From positions 96,001 through 160,000 of the forward strand of contig CAVQUB010000034.1 in the NCBI GenBank assembly GCA_963716725.1: 64,000 nucleotides of DNA. Direction: 5' to 3'. The stretch comes from an uncultured delta proteobacterium (GTDB lineage: Bacteria > Myxococcota_A > Polyangia > Polyangiales > Polyangiaceae). Below the pieces are notes generated by a model that was not told the origin of the DNA, did not search any database, and worked only from the letters and a program-made list of their open reading frames with translations. Below, one piece after another: positions 41,687-64,000 of the stretch; within the stretch, counting starts at the first letter, position 1, and the number at the start of each line of letters is the position of its first letter. A program made the translations under genes and the position numbers.

Positions 41687-42688
41687 GTGAGCGTCCGCCT
41701 GTGTGATAGCGTCCGCACCGTGCCGAGCGTGGACCGACAGACCGTCGTCGAAGCCCTGAACCACACGCTGGACCAGAGCGACTTCCCCACTCTCGGCGCC
41801 AAATACGAAGGCAAGGTCCGCGACAACTACTCGCGGGACGGCAAGCGCACGATCATCGTCACCGATCGCATCAGCGCCTTCGATCGAATCCTGGGCACCC
41901 TCCCCCTCAAGGGTCAGCTCTTGAATCACGTCGCCGCGTGGTGGTTCGACAAGACGGCCGATGTCGCGCCCAATCACGTGATCGCGGTGCCCGATCCCAA
42001 CGTGCTCATCGCCCACGAGTGCACGCCGCTCCCGGTAGAGATGGTGATGCGCGGCTACCTGACGGGCACCACCTCGACGAGCATCTGGGTGCACTACGAG
42101 AAGGGCGCGCGAACGTTCTGCGGTCACGCGCTCCCCGACGGCCTGAAGAAGCACCAGCGTTTGCCCGCCCCCCTCCTCACGCCGAGCACCAAGGCCGCGA
42201 AGGGCGGCCACGACGTCTCGGCGAGCCGCAGCGAAATCCTCGCGATCTCGGGCATGGCCCCGGCCGACTTCGACCAGGCCGCCGACATGGCCATGGCCCT
42301 CTTCGCCGCGGGCCAGCGCATCGCCGCCGACCGCGGCCTGATCCTGGTCGACACCAAATACGAGCTCGGCCGCACCCACGACGGGCGCATCGTGGTCATC
42401 GACGAGATCCACACCCCCGACTCGTCGCGCTACTGGAAAAGCGCCACCTACGACGCGCGCTTCGCGGCGGGCCAAGACCCCGAGAGCTTCGACAAGGAGT
42501 ACCTACGCCGCTGGCTCTCGGAGCGCGGCTTCACCGGCGACGGGCCGATTCCGGCAATACCGGATGAGATCCGGGTGGAGGCCACGCTGCGCTACATCGA
42601 AGCGATCGAAACGCTGACCGGTGAAGCGTTCGTGCCGAATACGGAAGAGCCGGTTGGGAGGATGCGGAGGAATCTGGGGATTGGGTGA
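41687..42688 (+). CDS. purC: SAICAR synthase
   Basis: GKVRD, TDRISAFD, KGQ.LN, TPSTK, LVDTKYE.G, DEIHTPDSSRYW, FDKE; true start may be slightly downstream. Confidence 0.96.
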   Translation: MSVRLCDSVRTVPSVDRQTVVEALNHTLDQSDFPTLGAKYEGKVRDNYSRDGKRTIIVTDRISAFDRILGTLPLKGQLLNHVAAWWFDKTADVAPNHVIAVPDPNVLIAHECTPLPVEMVMRGYLTGTTSTSIWVHYEKGARTFCGHALPDGLKKHQRLPAPLLTPSTKAAKGGHDVSASRSEILAISGMAPADFDQAADMAMALFAAGQRIAADRGLILVDTKYELGRTHDGRIVVIDEIHTPDSSRYWKSATYDARFAAGQDPESFDKEYLRRWLSERGFTGDGPIPAIPDEIRVEATLRYIEAIETLTGEAFVPNTEEPVGRMRRNLGIG

Positions 42689-42754
42689 GGGGCGGGCGGG
42701 GCTGACGGGTGGGGGATCCCCCCGGTCGAACACCCCGCTGTCTGGTTGGCGATT
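42632..42754 (+). repeat. purC 3' end plus downstream spacer (resident copy)
   Basis: 123 bp, 1 mismatch to 49004-49126; related copies at 47113 and 54530. Confidence 0.95.
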
Positions 42755-42908
42755 CGGGCGTGCTCCCGCGAACGCCGGAGATCATCGTGGCAGAGCGCGA
42801 GGCGCATCCGAGCGGGCGCGTGCCGAAGACAGTGAAGGCGCCCGTGACGCGCAACGTGCGGTGAAACTCGCCTGGCCGGCGTTCGGCGGGTGGAACGGCC
42901 AGTTATGC
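42740..42908 (-). other. attC-like site with degenerate distal core
   Basis: Minus strand starts GCATAAC; inner inverted repeat cgaacgccgg/ccggcgttcg; ends ACCAGAC instead of GTTRRRY. Confidence 0.7.
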
Positions 42909-42976
42909 CGTGGTGGAACACAGAGAGCCGGGTTGCGGAGGCCGTCGGCGCAGCAACCGTGTGCCATGGTCGTCGC

Positions 42977-46364: not shown

Positions 46365-47113
46365 GTCTAACTGGCGTTCTCCCTCGAACGCCGGTGGCAA
46401 TGTTAGCGGAAGACACCGCCGCGGGCACCAGCTCAGCGACCCAGCGCCTCCCGCACCCGAGCGAGCGCCTCCGGCAGCGCACGCTCGACCAGTTGCGCTT
46501 CCAGCCGAAGCACGCGGTAGCCGAGCGTCGTAAGCCTGCGGTCGCGCCGAGCATCCGCCGCGCCACGACCGCGGTGTGCGCTGCCGTCCACCTCGATGAT
46601 GAGCCGCCGGGCGGGCACCACGAAGTCGGCGATGAATTCCCCGACCACCACCTGGCGCCGCACCTCGACTCCGAGTTGGTGCGCGCGAAGCACGCGCCAC
46701 AGCGCGGCCTCCGAGGCCGTGGGCGCCGCGCGCATCGCTGCGGCGCGGGCGGCAAGGAGCTGTTGGCGGCGGAGCTGTTGGCGGTCGCGAGCGAGCATGG
46801 TTCCTCCGAGGCCCGGCGTGGTGGGCGGGCTTCGCGGCCCAGGGCGCACGATCTGTGACACGCCGCCCTTTGCGCTCGCTCGGAGGCGCCGGCTCTCGTG
46901 CTCAGTGCGTCGCGCCTGGTGAAAACGCGGCGTGGCGCAGAGCGTGCGCCGCTGAGCGGAGCCCGACCGCCGCGCCGGGCCGAGGCCCACCCGGCTCGCA
47001 TGCGTCACCTCACCGGGAGCGCGACAACCACGCGAACGCGTCCCCCTCAATCGCGCTGCGCGCGATTGGGGGGGGACCGCCGAGCGCAGCGAGGCGAGGG
47101 GGGGCAACCCGAG
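46365..47113 (-). mobile_element. DUF559/hairpin element copy 1 (complete)
   Basis: Half attC + DUF559 gene + leader + hairpin 47040-47077 + GGGGGGGCAACCCGAG; collinear with 48260-49004. Confidence 0.8.
46433..46798 (-). CDS. DUF559 (Vsr-like) endonuclease
   Basis: MR..PT.SE..LW, RRQ, IADF, IEVDG..H, D..RD..L...GYRVLR; GGAGG RBS. Confidence 0.92.
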   Translation of the reverse strand: MLARDRQQLRRQQLLAARAAAMRAAPTASEAALWRVLRAHQLGVEVRRQVVVGEFIADFVVPARRLIIEVDGSAHRGRGAADARRDRRLTTLGYRVLRLEAQLVERALPEALARVREALGR

Positions 47114-47172
47114 TGCCGAATACCGAGGAGCCGATCGCGCGGATGCGGAGGAATCTGGGGATTGGGGGGTGA
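47113..47172 (+). repeat. Orphan purC 3' end (VPNTEEPIARMRRNLGIGG*)
   Basis: In-frame variant of purC C-terminus VPNTEEPVGRMRRNLGIG*. Confidence 0.9.
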
Positions 47173-47492
47173 GGGGCGGGCGGGGGTGACGGTGCCCTGG
47201 CTCCGGTGGCTGGGGATCACATGGTCTCAACGGATTCCAGCAACCTGCCCTGGAAAGAGAGCGGTGCGGCGAGTTCGCCCGGCCGACGCGGCACGTGGCA
47301 CCGGCCGGGCAGAGGGCGGCACCGGATGAGCGGAAACTGACGAGCGGCCGCGAGGTCGACGCGGAGGGGACTTGCGTCGGTTGGGGGTGCGATTCGGCCG
47401 GCAGCGCGCAGACCGCTGCACCGACCAGGAACACGAGCAGCACAACGCATCTGACACCAGGGCTTTGGGCGTCTTGGGAATGTGTTCAGACC

Positions 47493-47576
47493 GGAGAACG
47501 ATCTGGCTTTCACCTGCAGGCGACCGAAGGAGCGCAGCGACCGACGGCGACTCTCACGTGCAACAGCATATTAGGC
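47493..47576 (-). other. Degenerate short attC site
   Basis: Plus GGAGAAC..ttcacctg...cacgtgcaa..ATTAGGC; 7 bp after the stop of the upstream cassette gene. Confidence 0.6.
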
Positions 47577-47583
47577 CGTCTCC

Positions 47584-48204
47584 CTACTGGGATGAGAGTT
47601 CTTCTGCGTAGCGTCCAGCTGCGATCCTCCGCGCAGCGTGAGCGAGGTCACGGAGAAGATCGGCAAGCTCATCCCAGCTCAGTGAGGTCTTGGCGCAGTG
47701 GAGCCCGTCGTTGGCGAGCCAGAGAGCTTGTGGGTGACCTTCGGGAAGCTGCTCTGGAAGGTAGTGCTTGCTCAAATTGTACAGCTGATTGAGTCGACTT
47801 GCCGGACTCTCGTCGCTCTTCTCGAAGAGGCGCTGGCCCGTGACTCGCGCGCCCACATCGAGACCCTGGTAGAGCGTCGCCAAGGCATGCTCAAGGTGTG
47901 ACAACGCTTCGAAGTAGACACCAACTCCGCGGGACTTCGTCTTGTCTCCGCTCAAGTACTGGTTCACCGCGTCGACCCCCGCATCGTGCGCGAGTATGCT
48001 GCTACTGCTGCGCCTGATTACAGCGAAGGCGAGTTGCGTTCCCCTGGGGCTGCATGGCGCGCTGAAGACTGAATTGAGGACGAACTGCTGTAACCAGTGG
48101 GCGCCGTCCGCGAACTCGTCCCGGAGCGGCTTCGCCGAACAGGCGCCCAAGAGCGAGAGTTCCTGTGAAACGAAGGTATCGAGAGCAAAGTTGCTGAGCG
48201 GCAT
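47584..48204 (-). CDS. Cassette hypothetical protein
   Basis: 206 aa ORF filling the space between attC-like ends. Confidence 0.75.
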   Translation of the reverse strand: MPLSNFALDTFVSQELSLLGACSAKPLRDEFADGAHWLQQFVLNSVFSAPCSPRGTQLAFAVIRRSSSSILAHDAGVDAVNQYLSGDKTKSRGVGVYFEALSHLEHALATLYQGLDVGARVTGQRLFEKSDESPASRLNQLYNLSKHYLPEQLPEGHPQALWLANDGLHCAKTSLSWDELADLLRDLAHAARRIAAGRYAEELSSQ

Positions 48205-48241
48205 CGCTTCTTCTGGCCCAGGGACCGCGGGATGTGGAGTC

Positions 48242-49004
48242 AGCTAACGATCGCCCTGGCTGGCGTTCTCCCTCGAACGCCGATGGCAATGATAGCGGAA
48301 GGCACGGCCGCGGGCACCAGCTCAGCGCCCCAGCGCCTCCCGCACCCGGGCGAGCGCCACCGGCAGCGCGCGCTCGACGAGCTCCGCTTCCAGCCGAAGC
48401 ACGCGATAGCCGAGCTTCGCGAGCTTGCGGTCCCGCCGAGCGTCAGCGGCGCGGTGTGCGCGGTGTGCGCTGCCGTCCACTTCGATCACGAGCCGCACGC
48501 AAGGCACGACGAAGTCCGCGATCAGCCCGCCGTTCACCACCTGGCGGCGCACTTCGACTCCGAGTTGGTGCGCGCGAAGCACGCGCCAGAGCGCGGCCTC
48601 CGAGGCCGTTGGCGCGACACGCATCGCGGCGGCGCGGGCGGCAAGGAGCTGTTGGCGGCGGAGCTGTTGGCGGTCGCGAGCGAGCATGGTTCCTCCGAGG
48701 CCCGGCGTGGTGGGCGGGCTTCGCAAGCCTTGGCGCACGATCTGTGACACGCCGCCCTTTGCGCTCGCTCGGAGGCGCCGGCTCTCGTGCTCAGTGCGTC
48801 GCGCCTGGTGAAGGCGCGGCGTGGCGCAGAGCGTGCGCCGGTTAAGCGCAGCCCGCCCGCCGCGTCGGGCCGAGGCCCACCCGGCTCGCATGCGTCACCT
48901 CACCGGGAGCGCGACAACCACGCGAACGCGTCCCCCCCAATCGCGCGCAGCGCGATTAAGGGGGGGACCGCCGAGCGCAGTGAGGCGAGGGGGGGCAACC
49001 CGAG
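48242..49004 (-). mobile_element. DUF559/hairpin element copy 2 (complete)
   Basis: Same layout as copy 1; hairpin 48930-48968. Confidence 0.8.
48322..48687 (-). CDS. DUF559 (Vsr-like) endonuclease
   Basis: 121 aa; 15 substitutions vs copy 1 by manual count. Confidence 0.92.
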   Translation of the reverse strand: MLARDRQQLRRQQLLAARAAAMRVAPTASEAALWRVLRAHQLGVEVRRQVVNGGLIADFVVPCVRLVIEVDGSAHRAHRAADARRDRKLAKLGYRVLRLEAELVERALPVALARVREALGR

Positions 49005-49126
49005 TGCCGAATACGGAAGAGCCGGTTGGGAGGATGCGGAGGAATCTGGGAATTGGGTGAGGGGCGGGCGGGGCTGACGGGTGGGGGATCCCCCCGGTCG
49101 AACACCCCGCTGTCTGGTTGGCGATT
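49004..49126 (+). repeat. Orphan purC 3' end plus spacer
   Basis: 122/123 identical to 42632-42754. Confidence 0.95.
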
Positions 49127-49263
49127 GAGGCGTTCAGCAGCGAACGCCGAGAGTCATCGCAGCAGACCGCGCGCTTGCCGCAGACAGCGAGGGCGTCCGC
49201 GACGCGCGACGGACGGGGAAACTCGCCTGGCCGGCGTTCGGCGGGTGCAACGCCAAGTTAGAC
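49112..49263 (-). other. attC-like site with degenerate distal core
   Basis: Minus GTCTAAC contains the TAA stop of the upstream ORF; ends ACCAGAC. Confidence 0.75.
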
Positions 49264-49650
49264 AGCGCCAGTGAGCTCCTTGTAGCGCCAATAGGATTCG
49301 AAAAAGGCATCGTGGAGCATGGCGCGGTCGTCGTCGTCGGTAGGTTCAACTAGATCCAGCCCAAGCCAGTCCGCGCAGGGGACGAGTTCCGGATCGCCTA
49401 CGCCGTCGATCAAACAGAACAAGCGGAAGATCGTTGTCGCACACGCATCGGCAACGACCTTCTGGAGGGCCGAGTGGGCGTCCGGGGACAAGCCCAGCGT
49501 CTGCAGTGCACGGAGTTCCGAGTCGGACAGCACGGGCTCCGGCGGGTAGCCGACCTTGGCGGAAGCGCGCCCCAGACCCTCGACCGCCTCGCACGCGGCG
49601 TCACGAATCAATCGGTGGACTTCGACGAGGAGAGCATCACGAGGGGTCAT
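49258..49650 (-). CDS. Cassette hypothetical protein
   Basis: 130 aa; stop inside attC core, ATG 15 bp after the previous attC. Confidence 0.8.
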   Translation of the reverse strand: MTPRDALLVEVHRLIRDAACEAVEGLGRASAKVGYPPEPVLSDSELRALQTLGLSPDAHSALQKVVADACATTIFRLFCLIDGVGDPELVPCADWLGLDLVEPTDDDDRAMLHDAFFESYWRYKELTGAV

Positions 49651-49665
49651 GAGGAACGCCCGGCT

Positions 49666-49831
49666 GTATAACGAGAGTGGCGTTCACTCGCGAACGCCGG
49701 AGGACATCGTAGCAGAGCGCGAGGCGTGGCAGAGGCGGGCGAGTGCCGAAGACAGGGAGGGCGCCCGCGACGCGGAACGGACGGTGAAGTCGGCAAGGCC
49801 GGCGTTCGACGGGTGGGACGGCAAGTTAGAC
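49666..49831 (-). other. attC site (long family)
   Basis: Plus GTATAAC...GTTAGAC; inverted repeat cgaacgccgg/ccggcgttcg. Confidence 0.85.
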
Positions 49832-49849
49832 AGCCCTCGCGCCGCTCGT

Positions 49850-50216: not shown

Positions 50217-50381
50217 GTATAACGAGACACACGTTCACCGGCGAACGCCGAGCGTCAAGTCGTCAGTCGGCAAGGCGCAACAGACGCGGGCGAGTGCCGC
50301 GTCAGAATGTTCGCCCGCGGAAGCGGAACGGATGGTGAAGTCGGCACGACCGGCATTCGGCGGGTGCAACGTGAGTTATGC
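50217..50381 (-). other. attC site (long family)
   Basis: Plus GTATAAC...GTTATGC; cgttcac/gtgcaacg arm with one extrahelical base. Confidence 0.88.
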
Positions 50382-50432
50382 CGCTCTGCGAAGCGCCTCG
50401 ACCGACTGCACATGAGTTGTCAGAATCAACGG

Positions 50433-50612
50433 ATGATTGCCGAGACGGTCGTCCTTGTCGGTGCCGGCGTGGTGGCCAACGGCTGGGATCCAGTGATCGC
50501 CGCGCTGCGGCGCACGTACTTCCCCGACATGCGTTCGCCGGAGGCCGCCAATTTCGCGATGGCGCGGTTCGTGTACGCGGCCCGGCTGACGCGCCCTGGG
50601 GGCGCAACGTAG
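50433..50612 (+). pseudogene. N-terminal gene fragment, possibly SIR2-like
   Basis: MIAETVVLVGAGVVANGW; truncated against the IS4 remnant. Confidence 0.35.
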
Positions 50613-51297
50613 CGCGCACCGAGTTCCTGCGCCTTCGCCAGGACCTCGAAAATGTCCGCTTCGCGGTCCATCACGTGAATGAGCGCGCTGCCGGGGCAGC
50701 GTGCATGGACGGCCTCGAGCATGGCCGGCCAGCGCAGTGATTCGCGCTCGGGGTCTCTCCGACTGACAGACCGGCGGCGCCCGCGTCCACCCTTGTGTAC
50801 GAGGCGGACGTGTCGCTGTAGACCCAGAACTCCGAGTGGCACTCGCTCCTCGCCGGGAAGCACGGCCAGCGCCACGTGTGCGAGAAACCCCTGGCTGCCG
50901 CCGGACGTGACGCCCAACCCAGCTCGCCGACTGGCGCCGCCGAGTGATACTTCGGTCGTATCGTGCGCGACGATACACAGGCCAGCGGAACTCACACGCT
51001 CCACCGTCGCCGACAGGTGCGGGTCAAGGATCTGCTCCGCGTCGAACTGCTCGTTGCCCAGGAATCGGTAGACACCCCCAAGCTCGGACGGAGTGTCGAC
51101 AGCCTGCGGAAACCCAACACCGGGCGCCGCCATCAGTTTCTCAGCGAGCCAACCGAGCCTGTCACTGCGCCGCTTATCGCCGAGCTGAGAGCCCTCGAAC
51201 TCGTCCGAAATCGACCGCCCTAACCATTCTGTTGCCGGCATTTCTCCCGTAGATCACACGCGCCGTCCGCTCGCAATGAGATGTGTATGATCTTGAG
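50590..51297 (-). mobile_element. Truncated IS4-family (IS50/Tn5-like) element
   Basis: LGDKRR..RL, YRFL.N, HDTTE, ES.RW, VMDREAD then breaks; end AGATGTGTATGATCTTGAG (51279-51297) resembles the Tn5 end. Confidence 0.85.
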
Positions 51298-51319
51298 CCG
51301 AAGGGGTGGGACTTCCAAG

Positions 51320-51491: not shown

Positions 51492-51674
51492 TTCACGGCC
51501 GCATCAGCGAGCGGCGTGCCAGGTGGGCGGACCCGAAAAGTCGGGTGGATCTGCTCGCCGCAATTGGGGAAGCGGCGAAGTCAGGTGGCGATCGCCACCT
51601 GGACTCGCAGCGAAGGCCGAGACAGACCGGCGAATACGCGATGCTCGGAGCCGCCGCCCAGAACGGCTGGGCCC

Positions 51675-51846
51675 GTCCCCCCCATTCGCGCGACAGCGCG
51701 AATTTGGGGGGGACCGCCGAGCGCAGCGAGGCGACGACCCTGGGAAGTCCCTGACGAGGGAGGGGGGGCAACACAGGTCGGAGGCGGATGGGTGAGAGGG
51801 CGCGGCAGACGGTCGGCGGTCGAGGGGTGCAACGGCCGTACGTGGC
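51675..51846 (-). repeat. Degenerate element end (copy 3): hairpin, purC-like trace, attC arm trace
   Basis: Hairpin 51675-51714 then ccgccgagcgcagcgaggcga; ggggggcaac; cggagg..gggtgag; cggcggtcgaggggtgcaacggcc. Confidence 0.65.
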
Positions 51847-53195: not shown

Positions 53196-53305
53196 GAGCT
53201 GCCAGACCAGGACGTGACCGTGAGAGGCGCGGTCAGCATCGCCCGCCGGCTGCAAGATCCGCTCTCCGAGTTGGTGAAGATCGATCCCAAGAGCGTCGGC
53301 GTCGG
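53196..53305 (+). repeat. 110 bp copy of tex internal segment
   Basis: 107/110 identical to 63210-63319. Confidence 0.95.
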
Positions 53306-54185: not shown

Positions 54186-54530
54186 GTTTCTCCGAGGCCC
54201 GGCACCCCTTCGAGTGTCACGAAGCGCGTCGTGGTGGGCGGGCTTCGCGATCCCTGGCGCACGATCTGTGACGCGCCGCCCGTTGCGCTTCGCTCGGAGG
54301 CGCCGGCTCTCGAGCTCGGGACGTCGCGTCTCGCAGGCGCGCGGCGTGGCGCAGACCGTGCGCCGCCGAGCGGAGCCCGACCGCCACGCAGAGCCGAGGC
54401 CCACCCGGCTCGCGCACGTCACCTCAGCGGGAGCGCGGCGACCACGCGAACGCGCCCCCCCAATCGCGCGCAGCGCGATTAAGGGGGGGACCGCCGAGCG
54501 CAGTGAGGCGAGGGGGGGGGGCAACCCGAG
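54186..54530 (-). mobile_element. DUF559/hairpin element copy 4 (leader and hairpin only)
   Basis: Collinear with ~46800-47113; hairpin 54454-54491; nuclease gene absent. Confidence 0.8.
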
Positions 54531-54623
54531 CGGAGGAATTTGGGGATCGCGGGGTGAGAGGCGGGCGGGGGGAACGGGTGGGGGATCCCCCCGGTCGAAC
54601 ACCCCGCTGTCTGGTTGACGATT
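54530..54623 (+). repeat. Shorter orphan purC 3' end (RRNLGIAG*) plus spacer
   Basis: Matches ~42664-42754 with substitutions. Confidence 0.85.
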
Positions 54624-54783: not shown

Positions 54784-55077
54784 TCAGCCTCGCGTTTGCC
54801 AGGTTGCCGGGTGGCGCTTGCCGTGAGCGACTGCGACGATCGCGATCAAGTCGGGATAGACCCGATAGTACACGCCATACGGGAACCGGTTGAGGACCGT
54901 GCACCTCAGGCCGCGATACCGGACAGCGAACGAAGTCGGACCTTCGCCGATCTGGCGGACGGCGTCGTCGAGTTCAGCGCGAAACACGAAACCGAGCCCA
55001 GCGCCTTGAGTCTCGTACCACTGGAACGCCTCGAGCGCGTCGACCTCGGCCTCCGTCGTGAAGACGACTGGGGTCAA
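54784..55077 (-). CDS. RelE/ParE family toxin
   Basis: WYE....LG..F, RFPY.VYY, AVAH.KR.P..W; TTG overlaps antitoxin stop. Confidence 0.88.
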   Translation of the reverse strand: MTPVVFTTEAEVDALEAFQWYETQGAGLGFVFRAELDDAVRQIGEGPTSFAVRYRGLRCTVLNRFPYGVYYRVYPDLIAIVAVAHGKRHPATWQTRG

Positions 55078-55289
55078 CGTTTTCCGGTCGTCATGCGAGC
55101 CCGGACCTGGTCCCAAGGCACGCCGGTCGGGCCCTCCCGATCAAGACGATCGAGTCGTCGGTCCAGCTCAGCGCGAAGCTCCGACGAAAGCGGGAGGTCC
55201 TCGGGCTTGAAGCTGCCCCAGAGTTCGTCGATAAGATCGAGCTTCTCGTCGGCGGTGAGATTCGAGATGTCCACGGCAGGTTTCGCCAC
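55074..55289 (-). CDS. Addiction-module antitoxin (TIGR02574-like)
   Basis: LT..EKL.LI.ELW.S, ELDRRL, VPW.QV. Confidence 0.88.
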   Translation of the reverse strand: MAKPAVDISNLTADEKLDLIDELWGSFKPEDLPLSSELRAELDRRLDRLDREGPTGVPWDQVRARMTTGKR

Positions 55290-55367
55290 CCCCGCATGAT
55301 GCCTCCGGTGGGAAGATCGCGCCAGAACCACCAACCGCGAAGGTGCAGCCATGGCTACCATGCGGCC

Positions 55368-55532
55368 GGATAACGAGACACACGTTCACCCGCGAACGCC
55401 GAGCGTCAAGTCGTCAGTCGGCAAGGCGCAACAGACGCGGGCGAGTGCCGCATCAGAATGTTCGCCCGCGGAAGCGGAACGGACGGTGAAGTCGGCAAGA
55501 CCGGCGTTCGGCGGGTGCAACGTGAGTTATGC
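55368..55532 (-). other. attC site (long family)
   Basis: Plus GGATAAC...GTTATGC; 159/165 identical to 50217-50381. Confidence 0.88.
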
Positions 55533-55584
55533 AGCCTCAACCACGACTCGAATGGTTCGGCGGCGCGAAGCACCACGTCTGAGC

Positions 55585-56364
55585 TCATCGCGTGAACTCT
55601 CGCGACAACGTCGCGAGCACGTCGCCAAACGTCTCTTTGATTTTGCCTTTGGAGTACCGAATTTGCTGAATGCCCTGAACATTGCTGAACTCCTCGCACC
55701 CTTCCTCGAGCAGCAAGATTGTGTTTCGGAAGCCCAGCCGCCCTTGGAACAACCCTGCCTCGTGGACAACGTTCTGGCGCGCACGAAGTGTTCCATCGGC
55801 CAGTTCGTCTTCGGCCGTCAGAACTAGCAACGCGAACGCAGAGGTGCTCAGCATTTCTTCGAGTACGTCGCGGACGGTGTGCCCGGCCCGGGCGCCGCTC
55901 TCGAATGCTTGCACCGGGTAGCCGTGGAGCTCGTGTAGGTGATCCTTCAGGTCGCGCCACTGCGCGCTCCTTCCGTGCCCGATGAAGAGTACGGGCTTTG
56001 CACGCTTCGCTGGGGCCGGCTGTGGAATGCGCTTCGCAGCCGAAAGCGCGCTCTCGAAAATTGCGAACAGACTTTCGATTGTTGCACGGGAAGCGGCGCT
56101 GACGGAGGTGCGCGTGCGCCAGCCCCAAGCCGTCTTGCCGTCCGAAGAGCCCTGGTACGCGCCATACGCGCCGACGCTGACAGCCAGGGCGTCCCCACGA
56201 AACATGACGCGGGAATCCCCGCGGGACCGCCTGTAGTCGGCGGCAAACTCGGGAAACGAGTCGTGGTCCCACTCGGCGCCATCAACGGTGATCACGAGAG
56301 ACAGGGGCGCACATGACTCGTCCAGCCTTTGGCACTCCTTCAGCACGCTTTCCAGTGTTTCCAC
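55585..56364 (-). CDS. Nucleotide-binding TIR-like (Cap12/Pycsar-type TIR) protein
   Basis: LFIGHG, FALLVLT.ED, RARQNVVHEAGLFQGRLG, FSNVQGI. Confidence 0.88.
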   Translation of the reverse strand: METLESVLKECQRLDESCAPLSLVITVDGAEWDHDSFPEFAADYRRSRGDSRVMFRGDALAVSVGAYGAYQGSSDGKTAWGWRTRTSVSAASRATIESLFAIFESALSAAKRIPQPAPAKRAKPVLFIGHGRSAQWRDLKDHLHELHGYPVQAFESGARAGHTVRDVLEEMLSTSAFALLVLTAEDELADGTLRARQNVVHEAGLFQGRLGFRNTILLLEEGCEEFSNVQGIQQIRYSKGKIKETFGDVLATLSREFTR

Positions 56365-56440
56365 CCCGAAGTGGGTGAAGTCGAATACCTTGGTCTTCCG
56401 CTCGGGACTTCTCAGTGAGCGGGTCGCTCTCGCGCGGTCC

Positions 56441-56606
56441 GCCCAACGGTTTGGCGTTCACCCGCGAACGCCGAGACCAAGAGATACCAGAGAGCGCGGC
56501 GGTGCACACGCGGGCGAGTGCCGCAGAACGAAGGGTGCACGCGGCTGTGGAACGGACGGTTCAGAGCGGTACGGCCGGCGGTCGGCGGGTGCAACGTGAG
56601 TTAGGC
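56441..56606 (-). other. attC site (long family)
   Basis: Plus GCCCAAC...GTTAGGC; cgttcacccgc/gcgggtgcaacg. Confidence 0.88.
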
Positions 56607-56636: not shown

Positions 56637-56846
56637 ATGCGCACGTACACGGCAGTCGTGGAACGAGACGCCGACACCGGCTGGTACGTCGGCCACGTAC
56701 CGGGTTGGCCCGGTGCGCACTCGCAAGGCGCGACAGAGGACGAGCTCCGTCGGAATCTCGAGGAAGTCATCGCGATGCTCCTCGAGGATGGCGAGCCGAC
56801 GCTCGAGTCAGAGTTCGTGGGGACGCAGACAGTCCGGGTTGCGTAG
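56637..56846 (+). CDS. hicB: HicB antitoxin
   Basis: YTAVVERD..TG.YVG.VPG.PGAHSQG.T..EL..NL.EVI. Confidence 0.92.
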   Translation: MRTYTAVVERDADTGWYVGHVPGWPGAHSQGATEDELRRNLEEVIAMLLEDGEPTLESEFVGTQTVRVA

Positions 56847-56849
56847 GAC

Positions 56850-57074
56850 GTGGGTGACGTTCCCGTTCTGAAACCGCGCGAAGTGGTCGCGATCCTGGCT
56901 CATCTAGGCTTCGCTGAGGTGCGACAACGCGGCTCGCACAAGCAATTTCGCCACTCGGATGGGCGCGTCACGACAGTGCCGGTTCACACGGGTCGGGACA
57001 TCTCGCCAAGCCTGGTACGCCAGATCGCGCGCGACATTGGTATGGACGTGCGCGATTTCATCGCGCAGCGGTGA
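56850..57074 (+). CDS. hicA: HicA toxin
   Basis: LGF.EVRQRGSH.QFRH.DGR.TTVPVH. Confidence 0.93.
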   Translation: MGDVPVLKPREVVAILAHLGFAEVRQRGSHKQFRHSDGRVTTVPVHTGRDISPSLVRQIARDIGMDVRDFIAQR

Positions 57075-57093: not shown

Positions 57094-57210
57094 GCCCAAC
57101 TGGCGTTCTCCCTCGAACGCCGGGCTCCCACATCCCCCGAGGCCACTCCGCTTCCGAGACCGCGCGCGACGCGCGAAAGAACTGACCATGCCGGCGCGGC
57201 CGCTGGCGGG
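57094..57210 (-). other. Partial attC (same arm as the element-associated half attC)
   Basis: Plus GCCCAACtggcgttctccctcgaacgccgg; opposite core missing. Confidence 0.6.
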
Positions 57211-60053: not shown

Positions 60054-60210
60054 GCCTAACTGGCGTTCTCCCTCGAACGCCGGTGGCAACGATAGCGGAA
60101 GACACGGCCGCGGGCACCAGCTCACCGGCCCAGCGCCGCCCGCACCCGCTCGAGCGCCACCGGCAGCGCGCGCTCGACGAGCGCAGTGAGGCGAGGGGGG
60201 GCAACCCGAG
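60054..60210 (-). mobile_element. DUF559/hairpin element copy 5 (internally deleted, both ends kept)
   Basis: Half attC + last codons of DUF559 fused at CGAGC (60178-60182) to the terminal gcagtgaggcgagggggggcaacccgag. Confidence 0.8.
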
Positions 60211-61127: not shown

Positions 61128-61355
61128 CAGCGCGGCCTCCGAAGCCGTGGGCGCCGCGCGCATCGAGGCGGTGCGGCCGCCAAGGACCTGTTGACGACGG
61201 AGCTGTTGATGGTCGCGAGCGAGCATGGTTCCTCCGAGGCCCGCCGGGCTCGCTCGGCCGCGACAACTCCACGCGAACGTGTCCCCCCCGATCGCGCGCA
61301 GCGCGATTGAGGGGGGGACCGCCGAGCGCAGCGAGGCGAGGGGGGGCAACCCGAG
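61128..61355 (-). mobile_element. DUF559/hairpin element copy 6 (5' 33 codons, shortened leader, hairpin)
   Basis: MLARDHQQLRRQQVLGGRTASMRAAPTASEAAL at 61226-61128; hairpin 61281-61319; same terminus. Confidence 0.8.
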
Positions 61356-61829: not shown

Positions 61830-61937
61830 TCTCTTGCGCTCCGCCTACGGTGCCGAGGCACCGCGCTCGGGCGGCGCAACCCGCAGGGCGTCCTGGCGCT
61901 TGACGGCGGCAGGCGCCCGCGTTGAAGAATGCGGAGC

Positions 61938-64000
61938 ATGCGTGACGCCGCTCTGGTCGAGAAGATCGCGCGCGAGCTTCAGGTCGCGCCCCGCTCGGTG
62001 ACAGCCGCGCTCGAACTCTTCGACTGCGGCGCGACCGTTCCGTTCGTCGCGCGCTATCGCAAAGAGGCCACCGACGGGCTCGACGAGGTGGCGCTGCGGG
62101 AGATCGCCGCGCGCGCCAAGTACCTCGATGACCTCGCGGATCGCCGGCGCGTCGTGCTCGAGACCATCGCGGGCCAGGGCAAGCTCACGGCCGAGCTCGA
62201 GCGCGCCATCGCAGCCTGCGAGACCAAGGCGGAGCTCGAGGCCTTGTACGCGCCCTTCAAGAGCAAGCGCAGGACGCGGGGTCAGATGGCCAGGGAGCTG
62301 GGGCTGGAGCCGCTGGCGGATTGGATCTGGCAGCGGCGCGGTCCGGGCAACCCCGAGGCGGCCGCGCTCCCGTTCCTGGAGCGGAGGCCGGAAATCGGGT
62401 CGGTCGAAGCTGCGCTCTCAGGAGCCGTCGACATTTGTGCCGAGCGCATCGCCGAAAAGCCGAGCGCTCGCCGCTTGGTGCAAGACGAGCTGCGCCGCGG
62501 CACGCTCCGCGTCAAGAAGGCTCCAAAGTTTCGCGAGCAGAAGACCAAATTCGACAACTACGAGAAGTTCGGCGAGCCGGTGGCGAGAGTCGCCTCGCAC
62601 CGCTACCTGGCCATCTGTCGTGGGGAGGCCGAAGGCGTGCTCAAGCCGAGCTTCGAGCTCGACGAAGCGCGGGTCGCGGGCGCGCTCGAGCGGACGTTGG
62701 GGCTCTCGGGCAACGACCCCTGGACCAAGCTCCTCGCTCGCGCCGTGGACGACGCGCTCACGCGGCTGTTGATACCCTCGGCACGCTCCAGCGTGCGTGC
62801 CGAGCTCGGGGACGCCGCAGAGCGCGACGCCATCAAGGTGTTCGCGAAGAACCTCGAGCAGCTGTTGCTCGCCGCGCCCTTCGGCGCGCGCTGGGTCCTC
62901 GGGATCGACCCGGGGCAGCGCACGGGCTGCAAGTGCGTCGTGGTCGATGCGACCGGCGGCCTGATCGAGCACACGGTCATCTACTTGGTTCAAGGACCGC
63001 GAGCGGAGCAGGCGGCCGAGAAGACGCTGTCGGCGCTGCTCGATCGCCACCCCATTCTGGCCGTCGCAGTCGGCAACGGCACCCACGGCCGTGAGACCGA
63101 GAATTTCGTGCGCGGGCTGTTGAAGCGCCGTGGGAAGCCCGAGGTCCTGTGCGTCTCGGTCAACGAAGCGGGCGCCAGCGTCTACTCGGCGAGCGAGCTC
63201 GCGCGGCACGAGCTCCCAGACCAGGACGTGACCGTGAGAGGCGCGGTCAGCATCGCCCGCCGGCTGCAGGATCCGCTCTCCGAGCTGGTGAAGATCGATC
63301 CCAAGAGCGTCGGCGTCGGTCAGTATCAGCACGACGTGAGCGAAAGCTTGCTCTGCGCCAAGCTCGACGAAGTGGTGGAGAGCTGCGTCAACCGCGTGGG
63401 CGTGGAGGTCAACACCGCCAGCCCGTCGCTGTTGGCTCGCGTCTCGGGTATCGGCGAGAAGCTGGCGCAGCGCATCGCCGATCATCGCGCAGAGAGCGGC
63501 CGCTTCCGCTCGCGGCGCGATCTCGCCAAGGTGACCGGGCTCGGCGCCCGCACCTTCGAGCAAGCGGCGGGCTTTCTGCGCGTGCACGGCGGGGCACACC
63601 CCCTCGATGCGAGCGGAGTTCATCCCGAACGCTACGCTTTGGTCGAGCGCATGGCGCGGGATCTCGGCGTCAGCCTAGAGAAGCTGATCGGGGCTCCAAA
63701 GCTGGCAACCCTAGACCGCACGCGATATCTGTCCGCCGACGTCGGCGCCTACACGCTCGACCACATCTTGACCGAGCTCGACAAGCCCGGGCGCGACCCG
63801 CGGGCCGAGTTCGAAGCCCCGGGCTTCCGCGACGATGTGCGCAGCATCGAGGAAGTGACGCCTGGCATGCTGCTCGAGGGGCGCGTGACGAACGTCACCG
63901 CCTTCGGCGCCTTCGTAGACATCGGGGTGCACCAAGACGGCCTGGTTCACGTCTCCGAATTGGCCGACCGCTTCGTGAAGGATCCGAGCGAGGTCGTCCG
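61938..64000 (+). CDS. tex: Tex family RNA-binding protein (runs off window)
   Basis: [65 protein letters not shown]1 motif FGAFVDIGVHQDGLVH. Confidence 0.95.
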   Translation, partial: MRDAALVEKIARELQVAPRSVTAALELFDCGATVPFVARYRKEATDGLDEVALREIAARAKYLDDLADRRRVVLETIAGQGKLTAELERAIAACETKAELEALYAPFKSKRRTRGQMARELGLEPLADWIWQRRGPGNPEAAALPFLERRPEIGSVEAALSGAVDICAERIAEKPSARRLVQDELRRGTLRVKKAPKFREQKTKFDNYEKFGEPVARVASHRYLAICRGEAEGVLKPSFELDEARVAGALERTLGLSGNDPWTKLLARAVDDALTRLLIPSARSSVRAELGDAAERDAIKVFAKNLEQLLLAAPFGARWVLGIDPGQRTGCKCVVVDATGGLIEHTVIYLVQGPRAEQAAEKTLSALLDRHPILAVAVGNGTHGRETENFVRGLLKRRGKPEVLCVSVNEAGASVYSASELARHELPDQDVTVRGAVSIARRLQDPLSELVKIDPKSVGVGQYQHDVSESLLCAKLDEVVESCVNRVGVEVNTASPSLLARVSGIGEKLAQRIADHRAESGRFRSRRDLAKVTGLGARTFEQAAGFLRVHGGAHPLDASGVHPERYALVERMARDLGVSLEKLIGAPKLATLDRTRYLSADVGAYTLDHILTELDKPGRDPRAEFEAPGFRDDVRSIEEVTPGMLLEGRVTNVTAFGAFVDIGVHQDGLVHVSELADRFVKDPSEVV

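Follow-up and report, generated by a model that had tools for sequence, protein, structure and literature searches.

Selfish elements that reside in the attC recombination sites of integron cassette arrays include the IS1111-attC elements and the group IIC-attC introns, which encode a DEDD transposase or a reverse transcriptase plus a ribozyme and which, in the accessible portion of PMC3001079, are described as inserting near the attC 5' end and antisense to the cassettes. Here we describe a repeated module built around a single open reading frame (ORF) of the DUF559 family, found between purC and tex in a 64,000-nucleotide stretch of myxobacterial DNA (the window; positions 96001-160000 of contig C34 of genome G000). 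We see it as a module that bears a nuclease, replaces gene ends and has become fused to an attC split in two. We give about an even chance to the reading, drawn from sequence comparison, that it is a mobile homing-like module carrying a replacement gene end, that a cassette array was joined to it at an attC apex, and that the resulting unit was stacked behind purC six times or more.

Elements that replace the 3' end of their target gene are represented by phage 21 and e14 at icd and by an endonuclease element at Allomyces atp6, with the phage cases using an integrase. Vsr-like (EDxHD) homing endonucleases, such as I-Bth0305I and the 'fractured genes' enzymes, belong to phage, intron or split-intein loci in the available excerpts of PMC3239194 and PMC2677866. 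IntI-driven insertion of cassettes at short genomic sites is presented in the portion consulted of bioRxiv 10.1101/2022.09.11.507474, while segmental amplification driven by a homing endonuclease is reported for SegB of T-even phages in a part of PMC13096335. A literature search covering DUF559, IS1111-attC and group IIC-attC elements, Vsr-like homing, clusters of attC sites lacking an integron integrase (CALINs) together with attC sites and myxobacteria, and intronless homing, with subscription papers and supplements lying outside it, returned no description of such a module, and among the papers listed as naming DUF559 none treats this family as mobile. To our knowledge, DUF559 is a very large family without an assigned role, and the origin of integrase-less cassette arrays behind conserved genes is an open point in integron biology.

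Results

The window belongs to a metagenome-assembled genome of 7.9 Mb (67.5% G+C, 84% complete), which was compared with related genomes, among them G001-G006. Within it, a 19-kb island of integron-type cassettes lies between purC and tex (Table 1). Three of the module copies in the window open with the same attC half broken at ...CCGCGGGC, and five close at ...GGGCAACCC followed by GA. BLAST located 24 module pieces in G000, and a single 761-nt query gave 18 matches there and 17-18 matches in each of G001, G002, G003 and G005.

The module is about 690 bp in length and consists of a 121-aa DUF559/Vsr-like nuclease gene and about 310 nt of conserved, hairpin-rich non-coding DNA that stops at a sharp right end, ...GGGGCAxxxxGA. 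The DUF559 ORFs matched PF04480 over profile positions 4-106 of 109 (E 1.6e-25 for copy 1 and 6.7e-23 for copy 2), the copy 2 protein matched the 'endonuclease-like protein' PDB 3HRL (E 4.9e-9), and the module protein is predicted to be a Vsr-like nuclease of the PD-(D/E)XK fold. The ORF was intact in 19 of the 21 translated copies, the other two being frameshifted, and it retained an ADF...IEVDG..H motif, the acidic and histidine residues of which we take to be catalytic. Nucleotide identity between copies falls to about 70% while the protein stays similar; its nearest named relatives come from Polyangiaceae and from Myxococcales metagenome-assembled genomes. At nine distant DUF559 loci in other genomes (38-60% protein identity), neither flanking repeats nor a conserved upstream region was found, indicating that the module is confined to the genus and its near kin.

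Upstream of the ORF, the non-coding part contains a long, imperfect inverted repeat whose arms hardly vary and enclose a variable centre of about 65 nt; the consensus of this repeat folds more strongly antisense to the ORF (-80 versus -52 kcal/mol; 64 G-U cells). It also contains a second, two-step hairpin of 39 nt, for which 12 sequence variants showed changes on both sides of at least five pairs, such as GTCTTCCCC/GGGGAAGAC versus GTCCCCCCC/GGGGGGGAC and ATTCGGGC/GCCCGAAT versus GCTCGGGC/GCCCGAGC. The closing dinucleotide GA belongs to the module itself: it is present in each of the six type-A copies of G000 and also in the copies of G001, G003 and G005, regardless of the sequence beyond it. 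No Rfam family matched at its gathering score in the window, and none matched at E<=1 in eight related loci; a GA-cis match at 48926-49004 (23 bits against a cut-off of 34.7) was treated as chance because it was not reproduced in those eight loci. A promoter and terminator consensus scan of copy 2 returned 0 and 0 sites, and no RNA run was listed among the public runs that hold the sequence. An RNA-guided element of the OMEGA- or bridge-RNA-like kind was also considered and set aside, because exact matches between the non-coding region and the module's own target were 8-10 nt in length and no longer than those of cross-pairs (6 modules by 6 targets).

The evidence for gene-end replacement comes from the sister genomes. 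In G002 and G003 the module sits directly behind purC in convergent orientation with no attC nearby, and is flanked by imperfect direct repeats of the purC end (80 nt, 84% identical in G002; 63 nt, 84% identical in G003). Both copies of the G003 repeat start with GTGCCGAAC, and its junction, in which ...GGCAGGAAGA is followed by GTGCCGAAC, is the same as the window's junction of GA with GTGCCGAA. Of the genomes of 26 relatives, 24 have a purC match, and in each of these the best match extends to residue 328-333 of 333 at the C-terminus; this end is conserved across the order, so that the tail belongs to purC by origin and was duplicated into the island. The module at uppS in G002 is flanked by repeats of 142 nt (88% identical), and that at an unnamed gene in G001 (contig C149) by repeats of 107 nt (82% identical), preceded by a remnant right end in what is a pile-up, while at a gene on contig C13 of G000 the tail, spacer and module are repeated in tandem. 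Direct repeats of a gene 3' end, the sign looked for in an integrative element, thus occur at purC, uppS and two other genes (63-142 nt, 82-88% identical), and flanking direct repeats stood beside the module in five of the 16 loci tested. No element-encoded integrase was present in the minimal one-ORF units of G002 and G003. For one G002 copy (C1:1341k) the right flank was not adjacent in five sister genomes, and no target-site reading was obtained.

The displaced gene ends comprise the last 55-140 nt, with the gene body keeping an intact version and the displaced version following directly after the module's right end. In the uppS pair, 12 synonymous versus four non-synonymous codon differences were counted and stop and frame were kept; the corresponding counts were 5 versus 1 for purC of G003 and 6 versus 2 for the C13 gene. 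In a simulated null in which one tail is constrained and the other decays in place, equally few non-synonymous codons arose in 0.05% (uppS), 1.9% (purC of G003) and 1.8% (C13) of the runs. With their mostly synonymous differences, the tails look allele-like and not decayed, a pattern suggesting that the module brought in a foreign version of the gene end, as 3'-end-replacing elements do. The tail pairs open with 15-23 identical nucleotides and then diverge.

Occupied and empty sites, as looked for in a homing element, were both found among the genomes. The end of uppS carries the module in G002 and is free of it in G000, G001, G003 and G005, and purC of G006 has neither module nor attC in about 800 nt after its stop. 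Separately, an attC relic with the centre gcgggcgagtgccg was seen about 90 nt after the uppS stop of G004 (locus L087, contig C9), at the same gene end that carries the module in G002.

In G000 and two sister genomes the module is joined to an attC. The left junction of copy 1 reads cgcgggc, accagc and then the DUF559 stop at 46433; at its other side ...gggcaaccc runs to 47110 and is followed by ga and by gtgccgaa (47113-47120), the latter being found at 49004-49011 after copy 2 (91% identical to copy 1 by BLAST). The repeat ends at ...GGGGGGGCAACCC at 47110 and 49001, the same right end recurs at 54527, 60207 and 61352, and copy 3 shows the variant ...CAACAC at 51774. The displaced tail of copy 1 resembles the G002-type purC end (ccgaggagccgatcgcgcgg), while the short tail form of copy 4 also follows a right-end fragment at 22.8 kb of G000 contig C5 (52/53 identical; 0/500 shuffles). 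That fragment (C5:22807-22900) has 95 nt of right end, to which 53 nt of purC tail are joined, and it is located a long way from purC where the G+C content is locally low.

Composite units in G005 (at least five copies, on C66, C110, C123 and C215) and on contig C148 of G001 give the order of parts: an IntI-type box, a degenerate left half, the module, a purC tail with stop, about 26 nt, and an attC right half ending in a box. Module plus purC tail is what lies inside the split attC, in common to three species. The native purC of G001 and of G004 has attC sequence and cassettes directly behind it. IntI exchanges strands at GTTRRRY boxes, and the left edges in G000 abut different cassettes exactly at such boxes (on the minus strand, GTTAGAC 46365, GTTAGGC 60054, GTTGGGC 57094 and GTTAGCT 48242), with equivalent boxes in G005, so that these edges coincide with the 3' boundary of a cassette, an R' box with an L' hairpin. 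The ORF is not followed by a complete attC: only 6 nt separate its stop from the attC centre, and the partner arm, if present, lies beyond the module. In a comparison of tail plus spacer the attC right half was clear only in G001 and G005, and when the left arm of copy 2 was folded with its tail and spacer, 4 of 45 pairs were inter-arm. A full copy at 376.8-377.6 kb of contig C5 is followed, from about 30 nt past its right end, by an attC right arm (47/58 identical, 0/300 shuffles), as is remnant copy 3 (c3; 23/26 identical, 0/300 shuffles), the flank of which matched attC right halves at 23/26 to 27/34 identical (0-1/300 shuffles).

The break was placed by aligning 27 stretches of contigs C7, C8 and C34 that bear an L' box. 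Intact attCs have the centre GCGGGCGAGTGCCG, in the context ...ACGCGGGCGAGTGCCGCA..., and the broken halves align with them up to GCGGGC; the break falls where the inner stem GCGGGCGA/TCGCCCGC gives way to the apical loop GTGCCG.... The exact 14-mer GCGGGCGAGTGCCG occurs 18 times in the genome, 14 times in three arrays and four times in the window. The L' box variant GCGTTCTCCCTCGAACGCC (TCCCTC form) is present at five places in G000, each of them a copy of this broken half, and no intact attC with a TCCCTC L' arm was found in the seven genus genomes. Since the broken-attC junction is common to the G000 and G005 copies, the break was probably a single ancestral event and not the outcome of repeated targeting.

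In a tree of 19 ORF copies, which left out the two frameshifted ones, the copies linked to purC formed one clade across five species (support 91/89), and another clade held two copies that share a different gene as their site (100/99); five copies from separate places in G002 were nearly identical. Clades that follow the locus would also arise if DUF559 were an ordinary accessory or cassette gene with no dedicated mobility, its repeats being produced by unequal crossing-over, by breakage of the attC palindrome (hairpin cleavage and end joining) and by segmental duplication. Head-to-tail arrays, copies that hold the upstream region only and the single shared attC break agree with such an origin, as do the attCs themselves, which are long palindromes prone to breakage (SbcCD cuts 5' of hairpin loops). 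However, it leaves unaccounted for the uppS gain in one species with its 142-nt, mostly synonymously differing tail duplicate, the five near-identical copies at unrelated G002 places, a right end that is sharp and conserved and yet adjoins a wide variety of sequences, and a covarying hairpin kept with a conserved ORF; we regard it as unlikely.

The near-identical G002 copies lie partly head-to-tail, with a constant junction of right end to left end. In three G002 loci (L045 at C1:1289k, L046 at C3:1990k and L042 at C1:1147k) the right end is interrupted at one point, after ...gcggcgagg, by a sequence beginning cataagacggggg..., the ORF of which starts MDRYIGLDAHSQTC and looks like an IS110-family transposase; this would be an insertion sequence (IS) targeting the module's right end. 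To the left of G002-type modules (L039, L042-L045) stand tandem octamers, CGCCACGA or CGCAACGA, repeated 3-4 times and followed by (GAA)n. Inverted runs of similar octamers were seen at a module-free G001 site (L122, on C18) and 600 nt to the right of one G002 copy, where the run adjoins a small GxxExxY-like ORF. These octamers may form an intergenic repeat in its own right, or the G002 subfamily may actually dock at them.

The original prediction was that the DUF559 element looked inserted into the middle of an attC and that one short motif, shared by attC and purC, might be its target. Much of what it described is there. Copies 1, 2 and 5 (attC half of copy 5, 60054-60120) and a copy at 377.5 kb of C5 start with the same attC arm, ending cgcgggc at the same base, GTGCCGAA (gtgccgaa) is indeed the purC sequence at the junction (42632-42639), and the proposed link between cassettes, module and purC is real. 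In other respects its description needs amending. Intact attCs do share a central motif, GCGGGCGAGTGCCG, but most of them read GTGCCGCA and not GTGCCGAA; the letters ...gcaaccc followed by gagtgccgaa are present at copies 1 and 2, but their GA belongs to the module and not to a target, and GTGCCGAA follows there because the displaced purC end begins with it. The attC is broken at its apex, at the stem-loop junction, but what follows copies 1, 2 and 4 is a purC 3' end (80-114 nt) and not an attC arm; an arm does lie beyond the C5:376.8-377.6 kb copy and remnant c3.

Taken as a mechanism, an attC-targeting DUF559 element would insert between GCGGGC and GAGTGCCG and would hit purC as well because of GTGCCGAA. 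The left halves that break exactly at GCGGGC, the right arms beyond the C5 copy and c3, and the GTGCCG with which both the attC loop and the purC junction begin, in G000 and in G003, speak for it. Yet a junction that is identical in all G000 copies and homologous in G005 argues for one event, a search of the seven genomes turned up no such attC without the module, the G002 and G003 modules stand at purC without any attC, and the junctions gathered at uppS and three unnamed genes share no common motif after the right end. The junctions at purC vary in position, GTGCCGAA occurs 450 times in the genome and so could not on its own be a specific target, the first 30 nt or so past the right end of the C5 copy match no attC loop, and an insertion between TTC and GTGCCGAA would remove the last 19 codons of purC unless a spare tail came too. 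The earlier observation is thus partly confirmed, its target-motif reading is partly supported at best, and we consider insertion by attC targeting quite improbable. Still less probable is a reading of the modules as satellites that depend for their movement on a recombinase from another locus (a tyrosine integrase or IntI), with an attP-like gene tail and DUF559 as cargo: the 15-23-nt identical core at the start of the tail pairs resembles attL/attR of 3'-end-replacing elements such as phage 21 and e14 in icd, constant tandem-array junctions fit a circular form and G000 has many tyrosine-recombinase genes, but no recombinase lies in or beside any unit examined, the junction position within purC varies, and IntI acts at R boxes and not at such cores.

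Cassettes of the island run on the minus strand and their ORFs end in the R'' box, as where the stop of 49258-49650 lies inside GTCTAAC; their products include ParE/antitoxin, HicAB, a TIR protein, a methyltransferase and others. A Pfam scan found no integrase among 25 island ORFs (27 in total with purC and tex), and an attC cassette array without intI makes the island a CALIN. Contig C8 carries a complete intI and C7 a partial one, and both adjoin an array of the same long attC type. The complete integron spans C8:385300-395114 and the partial one C7:148200-158215; both arrays lie on the 3' side of intI with their attCs in one orientation, not upstream of a divergent intI. Among the island cassettes, a protein with a CAP12/Pycsar-type TIR effector domain is encoded at 55585-56364 (-) and a ParE-type toxin with its antitoxin at 54784-55361 (-), while a HicB/HicA pair at 56637-57074 lies on the plus strand, opposite to the other cassettes. 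An ORF with a transposase DNA-binding domain (PF14706) at 50426-51300 is taken to be a multi-copy IS because its depth is 5-8 times that of its neighbours in contigs of three public runs, and a short palindromic piece at its edge, gaccctgggaagtccc, recurs in remnant c3 and in a copy on contig C13 of G000. A 110-nt coding piece of tex (63210-63319) is duplicated at 53196-53305 with 97% identity, mid-island and about 10 kb from tex, so that the island holds fragments of both border genes.

Table 1. Coordinates of purC, tex, module copies and attC sequences in the window
Feature	Position	Strand	Basis and remarks
purC (SAICAR synthase)	41687..42688	+	Pfam PF01259, E 2.4e-64
Last 19 codons of purC, the 'tail' repeated in the island	42632-42688	+	Sequence comparison
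Spacer and purC-proximal attC	42689..42910	.	Without canonical R' box; GTCGAAC at 42734-42740; repeat families D3, D9
Copy 1, attC left half	46365..46426	.	IntI-type box GTCTAAC (+) = GTTAGAC (-); break ...CGCGGGC (46420-46426)
Copy 1, module	46427..47112	-	DUF559 ORF 46433-46798 (121 aa); upstream region 46799-47112; right end ...GGGCAACCCGA
Copy 1, displaced purC tail	47113..47192	+	70/80 identical to 42632-42708; 0/500 shuffles reach score
Copy 2, attC left half	48242..48315	.	Box AGCTAAC, 12-nt extra stretch, L' box; break ...CGCGGGC (48309-48315)
Copy 2, module	48316..49003	-	DUF559 ORF 48322-48687; structured upstream region 48688-49003
Copy 2, purC tail, spacer and start of next attC	49004..49171	+	Duplicates 42632-42799; family D3, 92% over 168 nt; 113/114 identical
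Intact long attC, centre GGCGGGCGAGTGCCGAAGAC	49668..49833	.	Repeat families D2, D18 and alignment
Further intact long attCs	50219-50384, 55370-55535, 56440-56605	.	Same basis as 49668..49833
Copy 3 (c3), right-end remnant, type B (...GGGGGCAACAC, 24-nt insertion)	51674..51836	.	BLAST; attC right arm from about nt 29
Copy 4, upstream region and right end, without ORF	54220..54529	-	BLAST 87%, query positions 447-755
Copy 4, purC tail minus first 32 nt, plus spacer	54530..54614	+	76/85 identical; 0/500 shuffles
Lone truncated DUF559-linked attC left half	57094..57121	.	Box GCCCAAC and TCCCTC L' box
Copy 5, internally deleted module (left half, last ~60 nt of ORF, right end)	60054..60209	-	BLAST
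Copy 6, truncated module (ORF start and right end)	61129..61354	-	BLAST
tex, far island border	61929..63998	+	Pfam Tex domains

Discussion

In the explanation we favour, a selfish module would land at or just behind gene 3' ends and bring a spare gene end with it, purC being the oldest shared site of the family. We infer that the DUF559 nuclease would initiate these moves by a homing-like cut in the gene end, because of its fold (PF04480; PDB 3HRL), its position as the sole ORF of the minimal units and its conservation. In the lineage of G000, G001 and G005, a cassette array would then have joined the purC-linked module through a break at one attC apex, leaving one attC half abutting the DUF559 stop codon and the other half following the purC tail, which would be topologically the same as an insertion of module plus tail into an attC. 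The resulting unit, in the order purC tail, attC right half, cassettes, attC left half and module, would then have been copied behind purC on at least six occasions, either because purC tails recombined with one another or because excised circles went back in through the tail. IntI acting in trans (intI on C8) may have swapped cassettes at the R' box, the module's left edge. Each arrival would rebuild the target at the left junction and so permit stacking, which fits the six right ends in the window and the pile-ups at C13, in G001 and in G002. We infer the order of these events and the way in which the attC apex broke.

Several observations weigh against this explanation. Flanking repeats were lacking in nine of the 16 loci, and in the G002 purC tails the bias was not significant (4 synonymous versus 3 non-synonymous, with 11% of simulated runs holding equally few of the latter). 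The purC junction falls at no fewer than five positions among copies, over about 130 nt, which neither a precise site-specific cut nor simple homing predicts. On the attC side, the purC tail and spacer of G000 were tried as a homologue of the attC right arm and did not exceed shuffles (34/300 reach the score), and the flanks of the C5 copy, tried as one attC, gave 37 of 52 inter-arm pairs on one strand with an energy no better than that of a shuffled right arm. The first 30 nt past the right end of that copy and of c3 show no clear match to either attC loop or purC, and the flanks of copies 5 and 6 were not above shuffles against purC or attC (for copy 5 against purC, 190/500 shuffles reach the score). 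The GTGCCG start common to attC loop and purC tail has to be taken as a coincidence, which keeps attC targeting alive at low odds. Clades by target gene also fit plain vertical descent, and the role given to DUF559 is read from fold and sole-ORF status, with neither enzyme activity, a cut site nor a circular form having been seen. Finally, a repeat island in a metagenome assembly could hold assembly joins, for which short public contigs are no verification: contigs of four public DNA runs showed many joints at repeats with short sides (20-45 nt), such as 42685>54747 in one run, and nothing was concluded from them.

In its widest form, the favoured explanation would make DUF559 nucleases the drivers of an undescribed chromosomal homing element of myxobacteria, which cuts a housekeeping 3' end, inserts with a recoded end that spares the host gene, stacks and, once fused to a broken attC, hauls cassettes into integrase-less arrays. 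We put this forward as tentative and somewhat doubtful. Replaced gene ends, empty sister sites and recent multi-copy spread would give one branch of DUF559 a testable function, as the engine of a host-gene-sparing selfish element, and would offer a concrete route by which integrase-less cassette arrays come to sit behind conserved genes. If site-specific, the nuclease, at 121 aa, would also be a small candidate tool enzyme.

Like the IS1111-attC elements and the group IIC-attC introns, the module is a selfish element in an attC of a cassette array. It belongs to neither group, because enzyme, place and strand differ: its sole ORF is DUF559 and not a DEDD (IS110/IS1111) transposase, the scanned ORFs of the window gave no reverse transcriptase domain, and no Rfam match to a group II ribozyme came from the window at gathering score or from the eight related loci at E<=1, the break is at the attC centre, and the ORF runs on the same strand as the cassette ORFs. 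The attC break moreover looks like one ancestral event. With Vsr-like homing endonuclease genes it shares a small nuclease of predicted Vsr fold beside a conserved gene, occupied and empty sites, and allele-like flanks; for none of those enzymes do the excerpted sources report a repeat of the 3' gene end, a structured region of 310 nt or integron cassettes as load. SegB, a phage system, is alike in placing a nuclease by repeats and in the associated tandem pile-up of a segment. As in phage 21, e14 and the Allomyces element, the module supplies the last codons in a version of its own, the native end is displaced and the differences are largely synonymous, whereas the phages use an integrase and none is found in the island ORFs or the minimal units. 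The island itself resembles CALINs in being an attC cassette array without intI beside a housekeeping gene, and differs from the known IntI routes in that the array is tied to purC by repeated purC ends and a nuclease module.

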